NCBI RefSeq assembly: GCF_054482595.1 | Contig: NZ_JBTHVH010000004.1 | Length of the DNA stretch: 64,000 nt | From: a plasmid | Direction: 5' to 3' (one strand) | In this document: piece after piece, positions 13,034 through 21,479 of the stretch | How the letters are laid out: each line of letters starts with the position of its first letter | How positions within the stretch are numbered: position 1 is the stretch's first letter | Translations under genes and position numbers: made by a program | Notes under the pieces: generated by a model | Told to the model about the DNA's origin: nothing | Seen by the model: only the letters and a program-made list of their open reading frames with translations | Database searches by the model: none

Positions 13034-14594
<1,561 letters not shown>

Positions 14595-14703
14595 CTGTCA
14601 GACCAAGTTTACTCATATATACTTTAGATTGATTTAAAACTTCATTTTTAATTTAAAAGGATCTAGGTGAAGATCCTTTTTGATAATCTCATGACCAAAA
14701 TCC

Positions 14704-14741
14704 CTTAACGTGAGTTTTCGTTCCACTGAGCGTCAGACCCC
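14704..14741. repeat. Tn2/Tn3 38-bp terminal inverted repeat (IRR after blaTEM)
   Basis: CTTAACGTGAGTTTTCGTTCCACTGAGCGTCAGACCCC. Confidence 0.9.
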
Positions 14742-15355
14742 GTATATCGCTTGCTGATTACGTGCAGCTTTCCCTTCAGGCGGGATTCATACAGCGGCCA
14801 GCCATCCGTCATCCATATCACCACGTCAAAGGGTGACAGCAGGCTCAGAAGACGCTCCAGTGTGGCCAGAGTGCGTTCACCGAAAACGTGCGCCACAACT
14901 GTCCTCCGTATCCTGTCATACGCGTAAAACAGCCAGCGCTGACGTGATTTAGCACCGACGTAGCCCCACTGTTCGTCCATTTCAGCGCAGACAATCACAT
15001 CACTGCCCGGTTGTATGCGCGAGGTTACCGACTGCGGCCTGAGTTTTTTAAGTGACGTAAAACCGTGTTGAGGCCAACGCCCATAATGCGGGCAGTTGCC
15101 CGGCATCCAACGCCATTCATGGCCATATCAATGATTTTCTGGTGCGTACCGGGTTGAGAAGCGGTGTAAGTGAACTGCAGTTGCCATGTTTTACGGCAGT
15201 GAGAGCAGAGATAGCGCTGGTGTCCGGCAGTGCTTTTGCCGTTACGCACCACCCCGTCAGTAGCTGAACAGGAGGGACAGCTGATAGAAACAGAAGCCAC
15301 TGGAGCACCTCAAAAACACCATCATACACTAAATCAGTAAGTTGGCAGCATCACC
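14742..15355 (-). mobile_element. IS1, truncated (lacks about 154 bp at the insB end)
   Basis: Internal IS1 sequence begins directly after the Tn2 IR; other end GGTGATGCTGCCAAC at 15341..15355; differs at several positions from the IS1 at 5288. Confidence 0.85.
15025..15300 (-). CDS. insA: IS1 InsA
   Basis: 91-aa [21 protein letters not shown]... Confidence 0.85.
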
Positions 15356-15401
15356 CGATGCAGCTTTCGTCAATCATGACAGTTATGAGTTTTCCGGTTA
15401 C

Positions 15402-15725
15402 TTATCCATTTTTGCCAGCGTGTTCCGCAACATCTGTTTTACTGTTTACACAGCACTCTTCACGTAAGAATTCGATGATAGCTTCCAGTATTTCGTATTG
15501 AGAGACACACATGAGCGTTCGACTCTCCCGGTTTTGTGTGACGAGCCCTACTGATACCAGGGCTGAAATATGATGACTTAACGTTGATGAGGGAATGCCA
15601 AGCTGCTTTTGCAATTCACCTACAGGCAAACCTTGTTCTCCAGCTTTTACAAGATGTTTGAATATGAACAAACGGGTCGGGTGACCCAGCTCTTTTAGTG
15701 CTTTAGCTACTTCTTCCAGTTGCAT
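15402..15725 (-). CDS. arsR: ArsR/SmtB-family metalloregulator
   Basis: 107-aa ORF with HTH ...ELGHPTRLFIFKHL...VGELQKQLGIPSSTLSHHISAL... Confidence 0.7.
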   Translation of the reverse strand: MQLEEVAKALKELGHPTRLFIFKHLVKAGEQGLPVGELQKQLGIPSSTLSHHISALVSVGLVTQNRESRTLMCVSQYEILEAIIEFLREECCVNSKTDVAEHAGKNG

Positions 15726-15830
15726 GTGACAACCCTCTGTCTAATGATATTTCGATAATACCAGAAATATCTTGACCAGAATTATATTTCGATTATTCTA
15801 GAAACGTAGATTTTGTCAAGAGGGTTTAGT

Positions 15831-16964
15831 ATGAATAGTTGGATTTCTATGCTGCAAGATGCCGCAGAGATGTTTTTGTTTTTGGCCGTCGAGCTATCTT
15901 TGCTGTTTATTGTCATCAGTGCCGGTGTGAGCCTGATAAGGCAAAAGGTCCCGGACCATAAAATCCAGCAATTGATAGGGGCGAAAAAAGGAAAAGGCTA
16001 CCTGCTGGCCTCGTTGTTGGGAGCCGTTACCCCTTTCTGTAGTTGCTCAACAATTCCAATGCTACGAGGGTTGTTGTCGGCGAAAGCAGGGTTTGGTCCG
16101 ACACTCACTTTTTTGTTTGTTTCACCGTTGCTTAATCCCATTATCGTGGGGTTAATGTGGGTTACCTTTGGCTGGAAAGTAACTTTGTTGTACGCGATCA
16201 TCGCTGCCGGTGTCTCAGTCCTTGCCAGTATCGTATTGGATTTACTAGGATTTGAACGTCATATTGTTGATCACAAAAACTCAGCATCAAGTGGTTGCAC
16301 CACGAAATGCGATGATTCCGAAGCTTCGGTAAAAACGTCGGCGGGTTCCAGTTGTTGCAGCACTAGCTCGACTCAATTGCCTTTAAAAACGAGTTGCTGT
16401 ACTTCATCAGCGAACCCCATAATTAACTTAAGGACGGTAAAGAACGAGCAGAACGTATCAGCGTGTTGTTCATCAATATCATCTGAACAACCAGCTGTTA
16501 GCTGTTGCAGCAGCGAGAATCTGGGCAATGTGAATCTCACAACGAATACCACCTCTGGCCCAATAAAGTTAGCTATGAAAGATGCCTTACAGCAGTTTAA
16601 GGATGTTCTGCCTTATCTTTTGTTAAGTGTATTAATAGGTTCATTTATTTATGGCTTTATCCCTTCAGAGTGGATTGCAGCTCATGCCGGAGCAGATAAT
16701 CCCTTAGCCATACCGCTGAGTGCAGTTGTTGGTATTCCGTTGTATATCCGCGCAGAGGCAGTGATACCACTTGCATCAGTGCTGATGACTAAAGGAATGG
16801 GCCTGGGGGCATTAATGGCCTTGATAATCGGTAGTGCTGGAGCGAGTTTGACAGAAGTAATACTGCTTAAATCAATGTTCAGAATGCCTATGATAGTCGC
16901 TTTTCTGACAGTAATCCTGGGTATGGCCATACTTATGGGGTATCTGACCCAATTGCTTTTTTAA
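15831..16964 (+). CDS. ArsP-like permease carrying a Cys/Ser-rich loop
   Basis: ATG at 15831 preceded by AAGAGGG; multi-TM protein with TPFCSCS motif and central SSCCSTSS / TSCCTSS / SACCSS / VSCCSS repeats. Confidence 0.6.
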   Translation: MNSWISMLQDAAEMFLFLAVELSLLFIVISAGVSLIRQKVPDHKIQQLIGAKKGKGYLLASLLGAVTPFCSCSTIPMLRGLLSAKAGFGPTLTFLFVSPLLNPIIVGLMWVTFGWKVTLLYAIIAAGVSVLASIVLDLLGFERHIVDHKNSASSGCTTKCDDSEASVKTSAGSSCCSTSSTQLPLKTSCCTSSANPIINLRTVKNEQNVSACCSSISSEQPAVSCCSSENLGNVNLTTNTTSGPIKLAMKDALQQFKDVLPYLLLSVLIGSFIYGFIPSEWIAAHAGADNPLAIPLSAVVGIPLYIRAEAVIPLASVLMTKGMGLGALMALIIGSAGASLTEVILLKSMFRMPMIVAFLTVILGMAILMGYLTQLLF

Positions 16965-16988
16965 TAATAATAGTAAGGGTCTTCTGGT

Positions 16989-17808
16989 GGCACTGTTGCA
17001 AATAGTCGGTGGTGATAAACTTATCATCCCCTTTTGCTGATGGAGCTGCACATGAACCCATTCAAAGGCCGGCATTTTCAGCGTGACATCATTCTGTGGG
17101 CCGTACGCTGGTACTGCAAATACGGCATCAGTTACCGTGAGCTGCAGGAGATGCTGGCTGAACGCGGAGTGAATGTCGATCACTCCACGATTTACCGCTG
17201 GGTTCAGCGTTATGCGCCTGAAATGGAAAAACGGCTGCGCTGGTACTGGCGTAACCCTTCCGATCTTTGCCCGTGGCACATGGATGAAACCTACGTGAAG
17301 GTCAATGGCCGCTGGGCGTATCTGTACCGGGCCGTCGACAGCCGGGGCCGCACTGTCGATTTTTATCTCTCCTCCCGTCGTAACAGCAAAGCTGCATACC
17401 GGTTTCTGGGTAAAATCCTCAACAACGTGAAGAAGTGGCAGATCCCGCGATTCATCAACACGGATAAAGCGCCCGCCTATGGTCGCGCGCTTGCTCTGCT
17501 CAAACGCGAAGGCCGGTGCCCGTCTGACGTTGAACACCGACAGATTAAGTACCGGAACAACGTGATTGAATGCGATCATGGCAAACTGAAACGGATAATC
17601 GGCGCCACGCTGGGATTTAAATCCATGAAGACGGCTTACGCCACCATCAAAGGTATTGAGGTGATGCGTGCACTACGCAAAGGCCAGGCCTCAGCATTTT
17701 ATTATGGTGATCCCCTGGGCGAAATGCGCCTGGTAAGCAGAGTTTTTGAAATGTAAGGCCTTTGAATAAGACAAAAGGCTGCCTCATCGCTAACTTTGCA
17801 ACAGTGCC
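16989..17808 (+). mobile_element. IS26 copy 4
   Basis: 820 bp with IS26 terminal IRs. Confidence 0.97.
17052..17756 (+). CDS. tnp26: IS26 transposase Tnp26
   Basis: 234 aa MNPFKGRHF... Confidence 0.95.
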   Translation: MNPFKGRHFQRDIILWAVRWYCKYGISYRELQEMLAERGVNVDHSTIYRWVQRYAPEMEKRLRWYWRNPSDLCPWHMDETYVKVNGRWAYLYRAVDSRGRTVDFYLSSRRNSKAAYRFLGKILNNVKKWQIPRFINTDKAPAYGRALALLKREGRCPSDVEHRQIKYRNNVIECDHGKLKRIIGATLGFKSMKTAYATIKGIEVMRALRKGQASAFYYGDPLGEMRLVSRVFEM

Positions 17809-17919
17809 CTTCTGGTTTCATGTTGAACAAAGAAGACCCTTTAGCTTCTGTAATCCATTTAATCAGTCTGAATGAAATAGATTATAAATTCTGCTCTGCA
17901 TACCTGCTTAACCAAAGTC

Positions 17920-18225
17920 TCATGATTCTGATTGTCGGTACAGTGCCTGAATGTGGCATATCTGGGAGGTGCTGTACCCTGTTGCATCTGCCGTTTCTTT
18001 CTTGACCTGCCGGTAGTAAAGTACCTTTTGATGCCGTTCCTGAGCGACCTGTTTTCCCTGATATTTACCCAGCGTATGTGCGAGTTCAACTCCCTGCTTT
18101 TGGCGCTGGCGGTCAATTTGCTCGACCAGCAAAATATCATTGCGGTGACTGTCCATCAGTAAGCGACCCAGTTCCGGTCGGTCAAGTTTTGTACCGCTGA
18201 TATTCTCCCGGTAGTAACTGGCTAT
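17920..18225 (-). pseudogene. Serine resolvase (TnpR-like) remnant, degenerate
   Basis: Minus-strand frame ...ISGTKLDRPELGRLLMDSHRNDILLVEQIDR... resembles the resolvase catalytic core but has no start codon or catalytic-serine region; divergent from the adjacent tnpA. Confidence 0.45.
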
Positions 18226-18491
18226 TTTATGCCCCCGCTCCTAAACAAACTGCTCCAGCATCTCTTTTGCCCGATCGGTGAACTGATCTTCCGTCTATGC
18301 CCTTAAATAAGTGCTGATGAACATTTTTTCACCGCATTACCGCATTTAGGTTATTGCATTTAATCTATCGCATATAGGCTATGTCGTTCATTGTGTGCCG
18401 TCACGTTTAGATTATGGTGTCAGGGTATACCCTTATGCGATAACCATTTTTGTTAAAAATAACGCATCGAATAATTTATGAGGAAAACTAT

Positions 18492-21479
18492 ATGGCAAGG
18501 AGGCAGATTCTTTCTCTGTCGGAAAGAGAATCATTACTGGCATTACCGGACGATGAGTTAACGCTGACCCGAATGGCCTATTTCAGTGAGCATGATCTGG
18601 CGCTTATCAGTGCTCACCGTAAACCCGCCAGCCGTTTTGGTTTTGCCGTCCTTCTTTGCTATCTGAAAAATGTCGGCTTTGCCCCGGATAAAAAAATCTC
18701 TCCCTCTGATGCGCTGCTGAAGCATATCGCCAGCAGGCTAAAGCTTACCGGGGATCTCTGGCCTGCTTACCTTTCCGGCCGGGATACGACCCTGCGTGAG
18801 CATTTAACCGAACTGTACCGCTATCTTGGCGTAAAGGCGTTCACCGGCAAAATACAGCAGGACTGTATTACGCACCTGTTATCGATGGCGACGCGCACCG
18901 ATAAAGGCATTCTCCTAGCCGAAGAGTTACTTGTCTATCTCCGGCAGAACAACGTGATAATCCCCGCGATTGATGTCGTGGAGCGTACCTGTGCTGAAGT
19001 CATGGCAGGCGGCGATAAAATCGTATTTCAGACCCTGAATGCCCCGTTAACTCCGGCTCACAGGGATGCCCTGGATCATTTACTTGAGTCATCAGATAAT
19101 CAGCCTTCCAGGCTGACATGGCTTCTGCAACCGCCGGGTAAAATCAATGGTAAGAACGTGCTGCAACATCTTGATCGGCTCAGCAGCATTGAATCGCTGG
19201 CATTACCTGAAGGTATAGATCGTACCATTCACCAGAACCGGTTGCTGAAACTGGCGCGGGAAGGCCGAAAGATGAGTAGCCGGGATTTGACCCGATTTTC
19301 AGCTGCCCGGCGTCATGCGATCCTGGTGTGCGTGCTGGAAGAAGCCAGAGCCACACTGACAGACGAAGTGATTGAGCTGCATGAGCGAATGCTGAATAGT
19401 CTTTTCAGCAAAGCCAAACGAACACAGGCTGAGCGCCTTCAGCAGACCGGAAAGCTGATCCAGTCAAAACTGAGGCAGTACATCGATGTCGGTCAGGCGC
19501 TGTCTGATGCCCGTGATTCCGGTGGCGATCCCTGGCTCGCAATAGAAAACATACTCCCATGGGCTGAATTTGTCGCCAGTCTGGATGAAACACGCCATCT
19601 CGCCAGAAAAAATAATTTTGACCCGCTGCATATTATTACCGAGAAATACAGCACATTACGGAAATATGCCCCACGCATGTTGTCCGCTTTACAGTTAGTC
19701 GCAACCCCGGCAGCGCAACCTCTGGCTGATGCACTGGTTGTGATCAAGGATATGTACCGGAAGCAGTCACGTAAAGTTCCGGCGGCAGCGCCGCTTGAGT
19801 TTGTCCCTGAAAGCTGGCGCAAGGTGGTGATTACACCTGTGGGTATTGACCGGCAGTACTATGAGTTTTGTGCACTCAGCGAGCTTAAGGGGGCGTTGCG
19901 CTCCGGGGATATCTGGGTTAAAGGCTCGCGCCGCTACAAAAATTTTGATGATTACCTCATACCCGAGAAGGACTTTGACAAACTCACACCGGCACTGCCA
20001 CTGCCCGTATCTGCTGATTATCATGAGTACATTACCAGCCGTATGACCCTGCTTCAGTCCAGACTTGAAGAGGTCAATGCCATGGCTGCCCTTGGTGAAC
20101 TGCCCGATGTGGAAATATCCGACAGGGGCGTAAAAGTCTCTCCGCTGGATAACTGCGTTCCGGCGCAGGTTTCACCGCTGGCAGAGCTGGTTTACAGCAT
20201 GCTACCGCGACCTAAAATCACGGAAATTCTCGATGAGGTAAACAGCTGGACGACGTTTACCCGACATTTTTCGCATATAAAAAATGACATTACCCGTCCC
20301 GATACCCGCTTGCTCCTCACCACCATTCTTGCGGATGGCATCAATCTTGGCCTGACCAAAATGGCAGAAGCCTGCCCCGGGAGCACCAAATCATCACTCG
20401 AAGATATTCAGGCATGGTACATCCGTGACGAAACCTATTCAGCCGCTCTTGCAGAGCTGGTAAATGCGCAGGGGAAAAGACCGTTGGCGGCATTTTGGGG
20501 AGACGGAACAACGTCATCATCAGATGGACAAAATTTCAGAACCGGCAGCTCAGGCCGCTACGCAGGGCAGGTTAACCCGAAATATGGGCAAGAGCCTGGA
20601 CGTCAGTTTTATACCCATATTTCGGATCAATACAGCCCGTTTTACACCTGCATAATCAGTCGGGTCAGGGATTCAACCCATGTTCTCGATGGCTTGCTGT
20701 ACCACGAAAGCGACCTGGAAATCAGGGAACATTACACCGATACCGCTGGTTTCACCGATCATGTCTTTGCCCTGATGCATCTGTTGGGATTTGCGTTCTG
20801 TCCGCGAATCAGGGATCTCCACGACAAAAAACTGTTTATCAAAGGGAAAGCAGAGAAATACCCGGCGCTTCAGTCACTGATATCAACGACCAGCCTGAAT
20901 CTGAAAGAGATCGAAATCCACTGGCGTGAAGTGCTGCGTCTGGCAACCTCGATAAAGCAGGGAACCGTGACGGCATCCCTGATGCTGAAAAAGCTTGCCA
21001 GCTATCCCAAGCAAAACGGACTTGCCAAAGCACTGAGAGAAATTGGCCGCATTGAGCGAACCCTGTTTATGCTCGACTGGTTCCGCGACCCGGCTCTGCG
21101 TCGGCGGGTACAGGCGGGGCTGAATAAAGGCGAAGCCCGTAACGCGCTGGCGCGTGCGGTATTTATGCACCGACTGGGAGAAATCAGGGACAGAAAACCG
21201 GAAAATCAGAGCTATCGCGCCAGTGGACTGACGCTGCTGACGGCTGCCATATCCCTGTGGAATACCGTCTATATGGAAAGAGCGGTCGATGCCCTGAAGC
21301 GTAAAGGGGTGAAGATCAACGAGCAACTGCTGTCGCATTTGTCGCCGTTGGGCTGGGAACACATCAATCTGACAGGTGATTATATCTGGAAAAGCAACCG
21401 GATACCGGCTTCTGGTAAGTTTCGTCGGCTAAGACCAGCTAAAGTCGAAAGGTCAAAAAACAGCCTTAACGTACAATAA
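18492..21479 (+). CDS. tnpA: Tn3-family transposase TnpA, full length (unnamed element)
   Basis: 995 aa from [19 protein letters not shown]...; Tn3-family motifs throughout; stop overlaps a 38-bp terminal IR. Confidence 0.9.
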   Translation: MARRQILSLSERESLLALPDDELTLTRMAYFSEHDLALISAHRKPASRFGFAVLLCYLKNVGFAPDKKISPSDALLKHIASRLKLTGDLWPAYLSGRDTTLREHLTELYRYLGVKAFTGKIQQDCITHLLSMATRTDKGILLAEELLVYLRQNNVIIPAIDVVERTCAEVMAGGDKIVFQTLNAPLTPAHRDALDHLLESSDNQPSRLTWLLQPPGKINGKNVLQHLDRLSSIESLALPEGIDRTIHQNRLLKLAREGRKMSSRDLTRFSAARRHAILVCVLEEARATLTDEVIELHERMLNSLFSKAKRTQAERLQQTGKLIQSKLRQYIDVGQALSDARDSGGDPWLAIENILPWAEFVASLDETRHLARKNNFDPLHIITEKYSTLRKYAPRMLSALQLVATPAAQPLADALVVIKDMYRKQSRKVPAAAPLEFVPESWRKVVITPVGIDRQYYEFCALSELKGALRSGDIWVKGSRRYKNFDDYLIPEKDFDKLTPALPLPVSADYHEYITSRMTLLQSRLEEVNAMAALGELPDVEISDRGVKVSPLDNCVPAQVSPLAELVYSMLPRPKITEILDEVNSWTTFTRHFSHIKNDITRPDTRLLLTTILADGINLGLTKMAEACPGSTKSSLEDIQAWYIRDETYSAALAELVNAQGKRPLAAFWGDGTTSSSDGQNFRTGSSGRYAGQVNPKYGQEPGRQFYTHISDQYSPFYTCIISRVRDSTHVLDGLLYHESDLEIREHYTDTAGFTDHVFALMHLLGFAFCPRIRDLHDKKLFIKGKAEKYPALQSLISTTSLNLKEIEIHWREVLRLATSIKQGTVTASLMLKKLASYPKQNGLAKALREIGRIERTLFMLDWFRDPALRRRVQAGLNKGEARNALARAVFMHRLGEIRDRKPENQSYRASGLTLLTAAISLWNTVYMERAVDALKRKGVKINEQLLSHLSPLGWEHINLTGDYIWKSNRIPASGKFRRLRPAKVERSKNSLNVQ

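Follow-up and report, generated by a model that had tools for sequence, protein, structure and literature searches.

A pair of divergently transcribed genes in a 64,000-nucleotide stretch of plasmid DNA (contig NZ_JBTHVH010000004.1 of NCBI RefSeq assembly GCF_054482595.1, hereafter the window) encodes a repressor of the ArsR/SmtB family, ArsR2, and a permease of the ArsP family with a long, cysteine-rich central loop. The pair probably provides inducible efflux of trivalent organoarsenicals and represents the regulator-plus-pump core of an enterobacterial arsenic resistance (ars) module. The probability of this reading is put at roughly 0.6. It is favored because the repressor has the cysteine pattern of SpArsR, a methylarsenite-selective regulator from Shewanella putrefaciens 200. 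An earlier note, made from the letters of the window alone, had suggested that the pair might be a metal or metalloid resistance determinant. A metalloid role is supported by the ars and arsH genes that adjoin its orthologues and by the arrangement of cysteines in the regulator.

In the window the two genes are an intact but orphaned piece of a common enterobacterial ars island, carried on a multidrug-resistance plasmid. The sections below set out the identity of the permease, its repressor and their candidate operators, the nature of the central loop, the substrates that have to be weighed and the setting of the pair on the plasmid.

Identity of the permease, its repressor and their operators

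The permease matches the Pfam family ArsP_1 (PF03773; TC 2.A.119) with E = 6.7e-53, its residues 10-374 covering positions 4-293 of the 294-position model. A mechanical reading of the open reading frame (ORF) begins at a TTG at 15813. The ATG at 15831, which yields a protein of 377 amino acids, is the RefSeq start of the identical protein WP_001089729.1 and aligns with the starts of all homologues. The TPFCSCS motif contains Cys70 and Cys72 and is nearly invariant in 88 homologues. A C(S/T)C motif occurs in every ars-operon ArsP surveyed by Yang et al. (PMC4435449), and 'tPF' precedes it in their cluster 2; the permease has this 'tPF-C(S/T)C' form. Together, the Pfam match and the motif bear out the earlier assignment to the ArsP family. 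Located at the break of the second helix, TPFCSCS is the presumed intramembrane substrate site. Hydropathy and the secondary structure of an AlphaFold2 (AF2) model both give two four-segment hydrophobic repeats around a hydrophilic loop, the layout described for the family, in which this loop is of variable size (PMC7176098).

The closest functional reference is the ArsP of Campylobacter jejuni (locus L048), which is encoded in an arsP-arsR-arsC-acr3 operon. Its BLASTP alignment with the permease is full-length, with 31% identity (E = 7e-52), and Cys65 and Cys67 of the C. jejuni protein lie in a TPFCSCS motif. A neighbor-joining tree of 79 genomic homologues plus the query places the permease in a mainly gammaproteobacterial clade, whose Shewanella, Vibrio and Endozoicomonas proteins have core identities of 55-60% to it. 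Campylobacter and Helicobacter proteins form a separate clade, with core identities of 30-37%.

The best named NCBIfam models for the permease are those of SO_0444 (NF033936, 116.1 bits, cutoff 300) and SaoE (NF040736, 87.8 bits, cutoff 325). Both identities were rejected. The scores are about one-third of the cutoffs and reflect the family only, because C. jejuni ArsP scores about equally on the same two models (94 and 103 bits, respectively). SaoE has been reported only together with the SAO uptake genes (SaoP/A/B/X). The genes annotated around the orthologues are either ars genes or unrelated, with no ABC-transporter cluster among them, although the Sao proteins were not searched for directly. 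A Shewanella indica protein (L060) that was considered as a true SO_0444 orthologue was also set aside, since it reaches 98 bits on the SO_0444 model. From its family, motif and context, the permease is a predicted exporter of trivalent organoarsenicals.

The regulator encoded upstream scores 63.2 bits on the NCBIfam model for ArsR/SmtB metalloregulators (NF033788, cutoff 55), in agreement with the earlier call. Its only cysteines are at positions 73, 91 and 92, with none in the N-terminal two-thirds of the protein. Its best match in the PDB is AfArsR of Acidithiobacillus ferrooxidans (6J05, E = 1.8e-11). The alignment sets FLREECCVNSK over YLTENCCHGTR, such that Cys91-Cys92 fall on Cys95-Cys96 of AfArsR. 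No cysteine follows Cys92 in ArsR2 or in three orthologues, so the position of AfArsR Cys102 is empty. All three cysteines are invariant in the four close orthologues aligned. Among 26 related regulators encoded beside homologous permeases, the C-terminal CC pair is present in every one, an equivalent of Cys73 is lacking only from the three most distant ones (29-36% identical), and a minority add a cysteine five residues past the pair. What had been called a divergent regulator belongs to a large, conserved clade of AfArsR- and SpArsR-like proteins with a conserved operator of its own.

In two reports (PMC11868830; PMC13236881), SpArsR is described as having Cys101-Cys102 and no third cysteine and as responding to methylarsenite (MAs(III)) but not to arsenite (As(III)), because MAs(III) needs two thiol ligands only. 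The orthology between SpArsR and ArsR2 is drawn through the regulator of Shewanella xiamenensis rather than from the SpArsR sequence directly. This regulator is 53% identical to ArsR2, has cysteines at 81, 99 and 100, spaced as are 73, 91 and 92 of ArsR2, and lies beside a 47%-identical permease. SpArsR is also said to carry a third cysteine, at position 83, that is dispensable for induction. By these sequence patterns ArsR2 has the two-cysteine arrangement of SpArsR and would be a sensor of the methylarsenite type. A sulfur sensor of the BigR/YgaV type, suggested by the second and third PDB hits, was rejected: the BigR model gives 37.8 bits against a cutoff of 155, and the N-terminal cysteine is missing.

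The intergenic region of 105 bp contains two inverted-repeat boxes. Box 1, GATATTTC-N10-GAAATATC, is a perfect 8-nt inverted repeat located directly upstream of the permease -35 element. Box 2, ATATTTCGATTATTCTAGAAAC, is a direct repeat of box 1 (84% over 25 nt, with a spacing of 37 nt) and overlaps the -10 elements of both divergent promoters. The promoters are consensus matches only, with the sequences TTGACC-16-TATTCT for the permease (15772-15799, plus strand) and TTGACA-16-AATAAT for the regulator (15819-15792, minus strand, 11 of 12 matches). Both boxes are nearly invariant from Aeromonas to the Enterobacteriaceae, and the TTGAC after box 1 is also conserved. A box of the form TTTCGA-N6-TAGAAA (consensus TATTTCGATAWTACTAGAAATA), mostly in two copies about 49 bp apart, is found upstream of related permeases in Vibrio, Shewanella, Colwellia, Pseudoalteromonas, Aliivibrio, Pseudomonas saliphila and a Chloroflexi metagenome-assembled genome (MAG); the loci surveyed were L017, L019, L020, L022, L023, L028, L036-L047, L050 and L057. 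Judged by this conservation, regulator, operator and pump form a dedicated, old and self-contained module.

Orthologues of the pair lie with ars operons in E. coli, E. fergusonii, Salmonella, Buttiauxella and Endozoicomonas. The window is different, its neighboring genes having been removed by insertion sequences. On E. fergusonii and E. coli chromosomes, arsR-arsB-arsC is followed by the divergent pair. On the Salmonella chromosome, plasmid B of E. coli S30 and p1WJP83 of Buttiauxella, arsRDABC or arsDA is followed by arsH, the regulator and the divergent permease, with arsH sitting directly downstream of the regulator on the same strand. The identity of arsH was verified with TIGR02690 (405.6 bits, cutoff 292). 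According to PMC6205960, ArsH oxidizes trivalent organoarsenicals. In Endozoicomonas the pair adjoins arsD-arsA-acr3.

Two further features of these loci can be mentioned. In E. coli 2012C-4221 (L091, 4975-6403) and E. fergusonii (L002, 5573-7014), a pair about 84% identical to that of the window is located between arsC and slp and is annotated only as 'permease' and 'ArsR/SmtB family transcription factor'. The Salmonella chromosomal locus (L006) encodes, at 1-1159, a second and different PF03773 permease of 333 amino acids beside a small Thioredoxin_3 (PF13192) protein, an arrangement named ArsP-ArsE in Pseudodesulfovibrio. A single ars island therefore holds two ArsP-family pumps.

The central loop and the topology of the permease

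The central loop has about 100 residues, rather than the 90 first estimated, and includes 10 cysteines and 35 serines or threonines. Its four CC dyads are exactly those that the earlier note had read (SSCCSTSS, TSCCTSS, SACCSS and VSCCSS), and C156 and C160 are additional single cysteines. In 200,000 shuffles of the loop composition the mean number of dyads is 0.83, and four or more occur in 0.07% of them (P = 0.0007). The same note took the loop to be foreign to ArsP proteins, which the evidence does not support. The central loop of C. jejuni ArsP contains KSSCCSNNTFQNSYCQKSSS (in longer quotation, LEQKSSCCSNNTFQNSYCQKSSSIF), and in the BLASTP alignment its SSCCS falls on the first SSCCS of the permease, so that the motif is present in a characterized ArsP. 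Loops with CC dyads are common family-wide. Among relatives of the query clustered at 50% identity, the 95 full-length representatives have loops of 16-125 residues with as many as seven dyads. Among the 79 genomic homologues, four dyads are also found in Shewanella, Psychromonas and a Chloroflexi MAG, and Helicobacter proteins have one or two. The loop is a long example of a common ArsP feature, particular only in its length and dyad number, which lie high in a continuous range. Because it is a longer version of the loop in a characterized ArsP, the pair is largely ordinary.

Within the loop, conservation is concentrated in cysteines. In the close clade of Enterobacteriaceae, Aeromonas and Citrobacter proteins, the core is 82-96% identical, while the loop is 18-76% identical and varies in length from 52 to 100 residues. 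The only loop positions conserved in at least 85% of these proteins are C156, C189, C190, C225 and C226, which suggests that the cysteines are under selection while the remainder drifts. Plasmid alleles of 377, 359 and 345 amino acids have four, three and two dyads, respectively, as a result of in-frame deletions. The two shorter, near-identical alleles (P0015, L008 7474-8553; P0009, L009 7474-8511) lack 18 and 32 loop residues and have lost one and two dyads. The 345-amino-acid allele is still linked to arsH and arsDA on plasmid B of E. coli S30. The shortest loops beside regulators of the ArsR2 type usually retain two cysteines in a C-x3-C arrangement. A recent tandem duplication of dyads was considered and rejected, as the 13-nt repeat AGYTGTTGCAGCA (three copies) is weak and shows shared codons only.

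The AF2 model, built on an alignment of 88 sequences, has a mean predicted local distance difference test (pLDDT) score of 81.5. Most core blocks exceed 90, and residues from about 155 to 240 score between 39 and 57. In each half of the model, a long and a short helix are followed by two broken helices and one last helix. The break at residues 67-70 (TPFC) is matched in the second half by one at 305-307 (Y-I-R). Averaged over the 88 homologues, the number of lysines plus arginines is 4.65 in the loop joining segments 1 and 2, 8.28 in the central loop and 2.51 in the one joining segments 7 and 8, and it is 0.1-0.6 in the termini and the 3-4 and 5-6 loops. If each repeat contains a re-entrant hairpin, 16-17 of these residues lie inside versus 2.5-3 outside. 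A plain topology with eight crossings was judged unlikely, since in either orientation it has no positive-inside bias (about 9 versus 12). The hairpin model also fits homologues that have a basic, cysteine-rich N-tail and an extra helix, as well as those with histidine-rich N-tails poor in lysine and arginine.

From the distribution of lysine and arginine and the hairpin-type predicted fold, we infer that the central loop is cytoplasmic and that both termini are periplasmic. The model further suggests that ArsP proteins are small transporters of the hairpin type, like ArsB and the DASS proteins, rather than 4+4 TOG proteins. A Foldseek search with the predicted model found no structural match.

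The disorder predicted for the loop and its range of 16-125 residues across the family would also suit a periplasmic, functionally neutral linker of low complexity between the repeats, with dyads that play no role with the substrate. Near-identical plasmid alleles tolerate the in-frame deletions of 18 and 32 residues described above, ars-linked homologues of Firmicutes have a Cys-free loop, and a simple topology of eight helices with the basic loop L1 inside puts the central loop outside. Such a linker is nonetheless rather unlikely. Five cysteines are the only positions conserved at 85% or more in a drifting loop, and CC dyads are four- to fivefold above the expectation from composition. The dyads also recur independently in distant lineages and in the N-tails of homologues with a 1+4+4 layout, and both the charge distribution and the hairpin-type fold favor a cytoplasmic loop.

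Some distant relatives (P0157, P0174, P0184 and P0186; P0222, P0245 and P0168) differ in other respects, and some of them have TPLCTFS instead of the CSC motif. The TPLCTFS relatives carry N-tails of 70-100 residues that are almost all histidine, aspartate and glutamate, with very few lysines or arginines. Others have a basic, cysteine-rich N-tail followed by an extra transmembrane helix. In P0168, a segment rich in CC dyads (SSCCAPQ, SSCCETA, SSCCSGE and TPCCSQE) precedes the core. Across the family, the position of a thiol- or histidine-rich module seems to shift between N-terminus and central loop.

Proposed mechanism and competing substrates

The complete module would normally consist of arsR, arsB and arsC, with arsD and arsA in some versions, followed by arsH and arsR2 on one strand and by the divergent arsP on the other. 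IS1 and IS26 would have reduced it to arsR2 and arsP and carried this remainder into the resistance region of an IncHI2-type plasmid. ArsR2 is a predicted winged-helix repressor whose only candidate sensing residues are Cys91-Cys92, at the end of the C-terminal helix, together with Cys73. The two conserved inverted-repeat boxes overlap the predicted divergent promoters, and a dimer of ArsR2 on these boxes would repress both genes. Binding of MAs(III) or reduced roxarsone to Cys91-Cys92 would free the repressor from the DNA, as is reported for SpArsR. In the predicted ArsP fold of the permease, Cys70-x-Cys72 lies at an unwound helix break and the disordered loop joins the two structural repeats. 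Cys70 and Cys72 would bind the trivalent organoarsenical in the membrane, and the proton-motive force would power its export, as is reported for C. jejuni ArsP.

The dyads of the cytoplasmic loop might serve as a two-thiol capture and hand-over antenna that enriches the substrate near the entrance of the pump, in an accessory rather than an essential role. This step, drawn by analogy, is tentative. A bolder version is likewise doubtful: the loop could be a built-in chaperone of variable copy number, each S-C-C-S dyad holding one trivalent organoarsenical by its two thiols on the cytoplasmic side and passing it to the Cys70-x-Cys72 hairpin tip of a miniature elevator resembling ArsB and the DASS proteins. 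If so, the affinity or the capacity of the pump would be adjusted by gain or loss of dyads (two, three or four in plasmid alleles and up to seven elsewhere). In the literature searched, no arsenic pump is described that has an equivalent of ArsD tethered to the transporter.

Several observations weigh against organoarsenical efflux by an inducible pump with a functional loop. The core of the permease shares only about 32% identity with that of C. jejuni ArsP, the level also seen for other branches of the family, and the family includes the Cu/Zn exporter SO_0444 (PMC3219624). Most marine relatives of the pair are solitary, with no ars gene within 8 kb, and ars linkage is therefore demonstrated mainly for Enterobacterales and Endozoicomonas. 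In the 64 kb of the window there is no arsH and no other ars gene, which weakens the case for a selective value of the pair in this setting. The invariant Cys73 could act as a third ligand and give a response to inorganic As(III). Loops of only 17-19 residues without cysteine are found in ars-linked ArsPs of Firmicutes, and for this reason the loop is regarded as accessory and not needed for the function of the family. Charge counts and the predicted fold are the sole basis for placing the loop on one side of the membrane, and a model with eight crossings makes either the loop or the basic L1 periplasmic. Finally, the literature searched contains no transport, binding or induction experiment for this clade.

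The conserved Cys73 is also the foundation of a different proposal, in which the pair is a pump inducible by inorganic As(III) or Sb(III). Cys73 of one subunit and Cys91-Cys92 of the other would form a three-coordinate site, and the permease would back up ArsB. Cys73 is kept in the four close orthologues, and of the 26 related regulators only the three most distant lack its equivalent. It is located just before the last helix, which has the CC pair at its end, and an antiparallel dimer could bring the three thiols together. In ArArsR, a cysteine of the beta-wing region serves as an As(III) ligand (PMC11868830). Some members of the clade have a cysteine five residues past the CC pair, like Cys102 of AfArsR, and the multiple thiols of the loop could hold As(III) by three ligands. 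An inorganic substrate is nevertheless unlikely. SpArsR, which probably has the same three cysteines by the spacing of the S. xiamenensis protein, is reported to be unresponsive to As(III) (PMC11868830; PMC13236881), and PMC6205960 states that C. jejuni ArsP does not transport As(III). In addition, genes for dedicated As(III) pumps (ArsB or ArsAB) adjoin the pair, and arsH, in one operon with it, encodes an organoarsenical oxidase. This adjacency argues for a substrate that is complementary rather than redundant.

Efflux of a soft metal (Cu, Zn, Cd or Hg), with the loop and the CSC motif binding a thiophilic cation and the ArsR/SmtB regulator sensing the metal, could draw on the need of Shewanella oneidensis for SO_0444, a member of the same Pfam family, under Zn and Cu stress (PMC3219624), on the rank of SO_0444 as top NCBIfam model (116 bits), on relatives with histidine-rich loops or N-tails typical of metal transporters and on the good binding of Cd, Hg and Cu by cysteine-rich segments, but it is quite improbable: the SO_0444 match is far under the 300-bit equivalog cutoff and C. 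jejuni ArsP is similar at 94 bits, the partner of SO_0444 is a ZntR/MerR-type regulator rather than an AfArsR-like one, ArsR2 lacks both a His-containing alpha5 site and an N-terminal alpha3-type cysteine site, and in Enterobacterales the genes next to the pair are without exception ars genes and arsH, with cop, czc, znt and mer never among them.

Plasmid setting, distribution and comparison with known systems

The ORF list and the sequence place both genes where they had first been located, with the regulator at 15402-15725 and the end of the permease at 16964 (Table 1). Also as first described, the genes are boxed by a truncated IS1 and by IS26, which alignments to the IS1A and IS26 copies of plasmid pTB-nb4 confirm. 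The IS1 remnant aligns over 627 bp (14741-15367) at 96% identity with the intact IS1A copy, and the IS1 inverted repeat, read from the sequence, ends at 15356. This end is the left breakpoint, which removed arsH. It lies 46 bp downstream of the regulator stop codon, at the expected start of arsH. On the other side, IS26 starts 25 bp past the permease stop codon, and its transposase ORF is located at 17034-17756. The insertion sequences cut closely around the two genes, because homology between the window and the Salmonella chromosomal ars locus is limited to 15355-17002.

Table 1. Positions of the gene pair, its regulatory and protein features and the flanking insertion sequences in the window
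Feature	Position	Strand	Basis
IS1 remnant (insA intact, insB region shortened)	14741-15356	-	ORFs, alignment, reading of terminal repeat
arsR2, predicted ArsR/SmtB repressor of 107 amino acids	15402-15725	-	NF033788, PDB match 6J05
Candidate operator box 1	15746-15771		Perfect 8-nt inverted repeat, conserved across genera
Divergent sigma-70-like promoters	15772-15819		Consensus matches only
Candidate operator box 2	15784-15805		Direct repeat of box 1
ArsP-family permease, 377 amino acids	15831-16964	+	Pfam ArsP_1, C. jejuni ArsP alignment, context of orthologues
TPFCSCS motif, residues 67-73	16029-16049	+	Homologue alignment, AF2 helix break
Central Cys/Ser/Thr-rich loop, predicted disordered, residues 145-244	16263-16562	+	pLDDT, CC enrichment
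IS26, right breakpoint	16989-17808	+	About 820 bp, 99.4-100% identity to IS26 copies of pTB-nb4

The rest of the window corresponds to the resistance region that Salmonella and E. coli from pigs and poultry carry on IncHI2-type plasmids. From 13849 to 18300 it is, apart from blaTEM, 99.9% identical to pTB-nb4 (CP033636). The blaTEM gene at 13857-14594 is a 245-amino-acid ORF that begins with GTG, compared with the complete 861-bp (286-codon) TEM-1 gene of pTB-nb4; its 5' end was lost to an IS26 copy at 13034-13853. A Tn3-family transposase of 1009 amino acids is encoded after IS26, at 18450-21479. The 25 kb that follow the pTB-nb4-like segment (the region 18300-43000) are 100% identical to IncHI2-type plasmids of Salmonella from pigs, and genes for a DNA cytosine methyltransferase and a DUF1173 protein as well as cmlA are among those annotated there. 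This stretch is 24.7 kb long in the window and about 38 kb long in the best-matching records; the window therefore lacks an insertion of about 14 kb that these records carry.

The unique 1.6-kb segment with the two genes is present in 648 of the 72,556 plasmids in PLSDB, at an identity of at least 99% in 246 cases, 95-99% in 258 and 90-95% in 131. Most carriers are conjugative and belong to E. coli and Salmonella, and chickens, pigs or meat are the source of many of the records listed. About 250 plasmids have retained arsH as well. A chromosomal homologue with about 84% identity occurs in 2386 of 5426 complete E. coli genomes (about 44%), next to arsRBC, with 2249 places on chromosomes. Among sequenced Enterobacterales the pair is very common. 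All records label the permease merely as 'permease'. A literature search by RefSeq protein accessions returned no mention of the proteins, and no paper characterizing the pair was found in the literature searched. If the assignment proposed here is true, hundreds of conjugative multidrug-resistance plasmids in E. coli and Salmonella carry an efflux module of the methylarsenite or roxarsone type. Organoarsenical feed additives, or methylarsenite produced by gut microbes, could then co-select such plasmids.

Among known systems, the nearest to the permease is C. jejuni ArsP, the prototype of TC 2.A.119, which exports methylarsenite and trivalent roxarsone but not arsenite according to PMC6205960. 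The two proteins share PF03773, the TPFCSCS motif, whose two cysteines are reportedly essential, a central loop between two sets of four hydrophobic segments, an SSCCS dyad in that loop, and a gene location beside ars genes under an ArsR repressor. They differ in that the identity is only 31-32% and the permease is in a separate clade of the tree. The C. jejuni loop has about 55 residues with one dyad and one further cysteine, compared with about 100 residues and four dyads in the permease. The C. jejuni ArsR has a CVC-type site in place of the C-terminal CC type of ArsR2, and C. jejuni arsP is the first gene of a four-gene operon, whereas the permease gene of the window is transcribed divergently from its regulator. 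SO_0444 and SaoE have the Pfam family and the CSC motif in common with the permease but differ in partner regulator and neighborhood.

For the regulator, AfArsR is the best relative of solved structure and has its vicinal cysteine pair in the same position. SpArsR resembles ArsR2 in that the third ligand, at the position of Cys102, is missing. ArsR2 differs from both in its additional, invariant Cys73.

The comparison for the loop is with ArsD. ArsD is a metallochaperone whose vicinal cysteine pairs hand As(III) to the ArsA pump. The ArsD of Salmonella starts with MCCSTGVCG and ends with SCCGGNTSCC, and these CC pairs resemble the S-C-C-S dyads of the loop. However, ArsD is a separate, folded and soluble protein that serves the ArsA ATPase, whereas the dyads considered here are part of a loop of the permease that is predicted to be disordered, and any analogy would be a functional one only. 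The loop offers a simple test case of whether tethered sites of vicinal thiols aid a secondary transporter in capturing a thiol-reactive substrate. With the elevator transporters of the ArsB/DASS type (IT-superfamily) the permease has no detectable sequence similarity, and in its predicted structure it is much smaller, with eight rather than 11-12 helical elements. Set beside these systems, the pair is an uncharacterized addition to a known type of resistance module, and the basic picture of such modules is unchanged.

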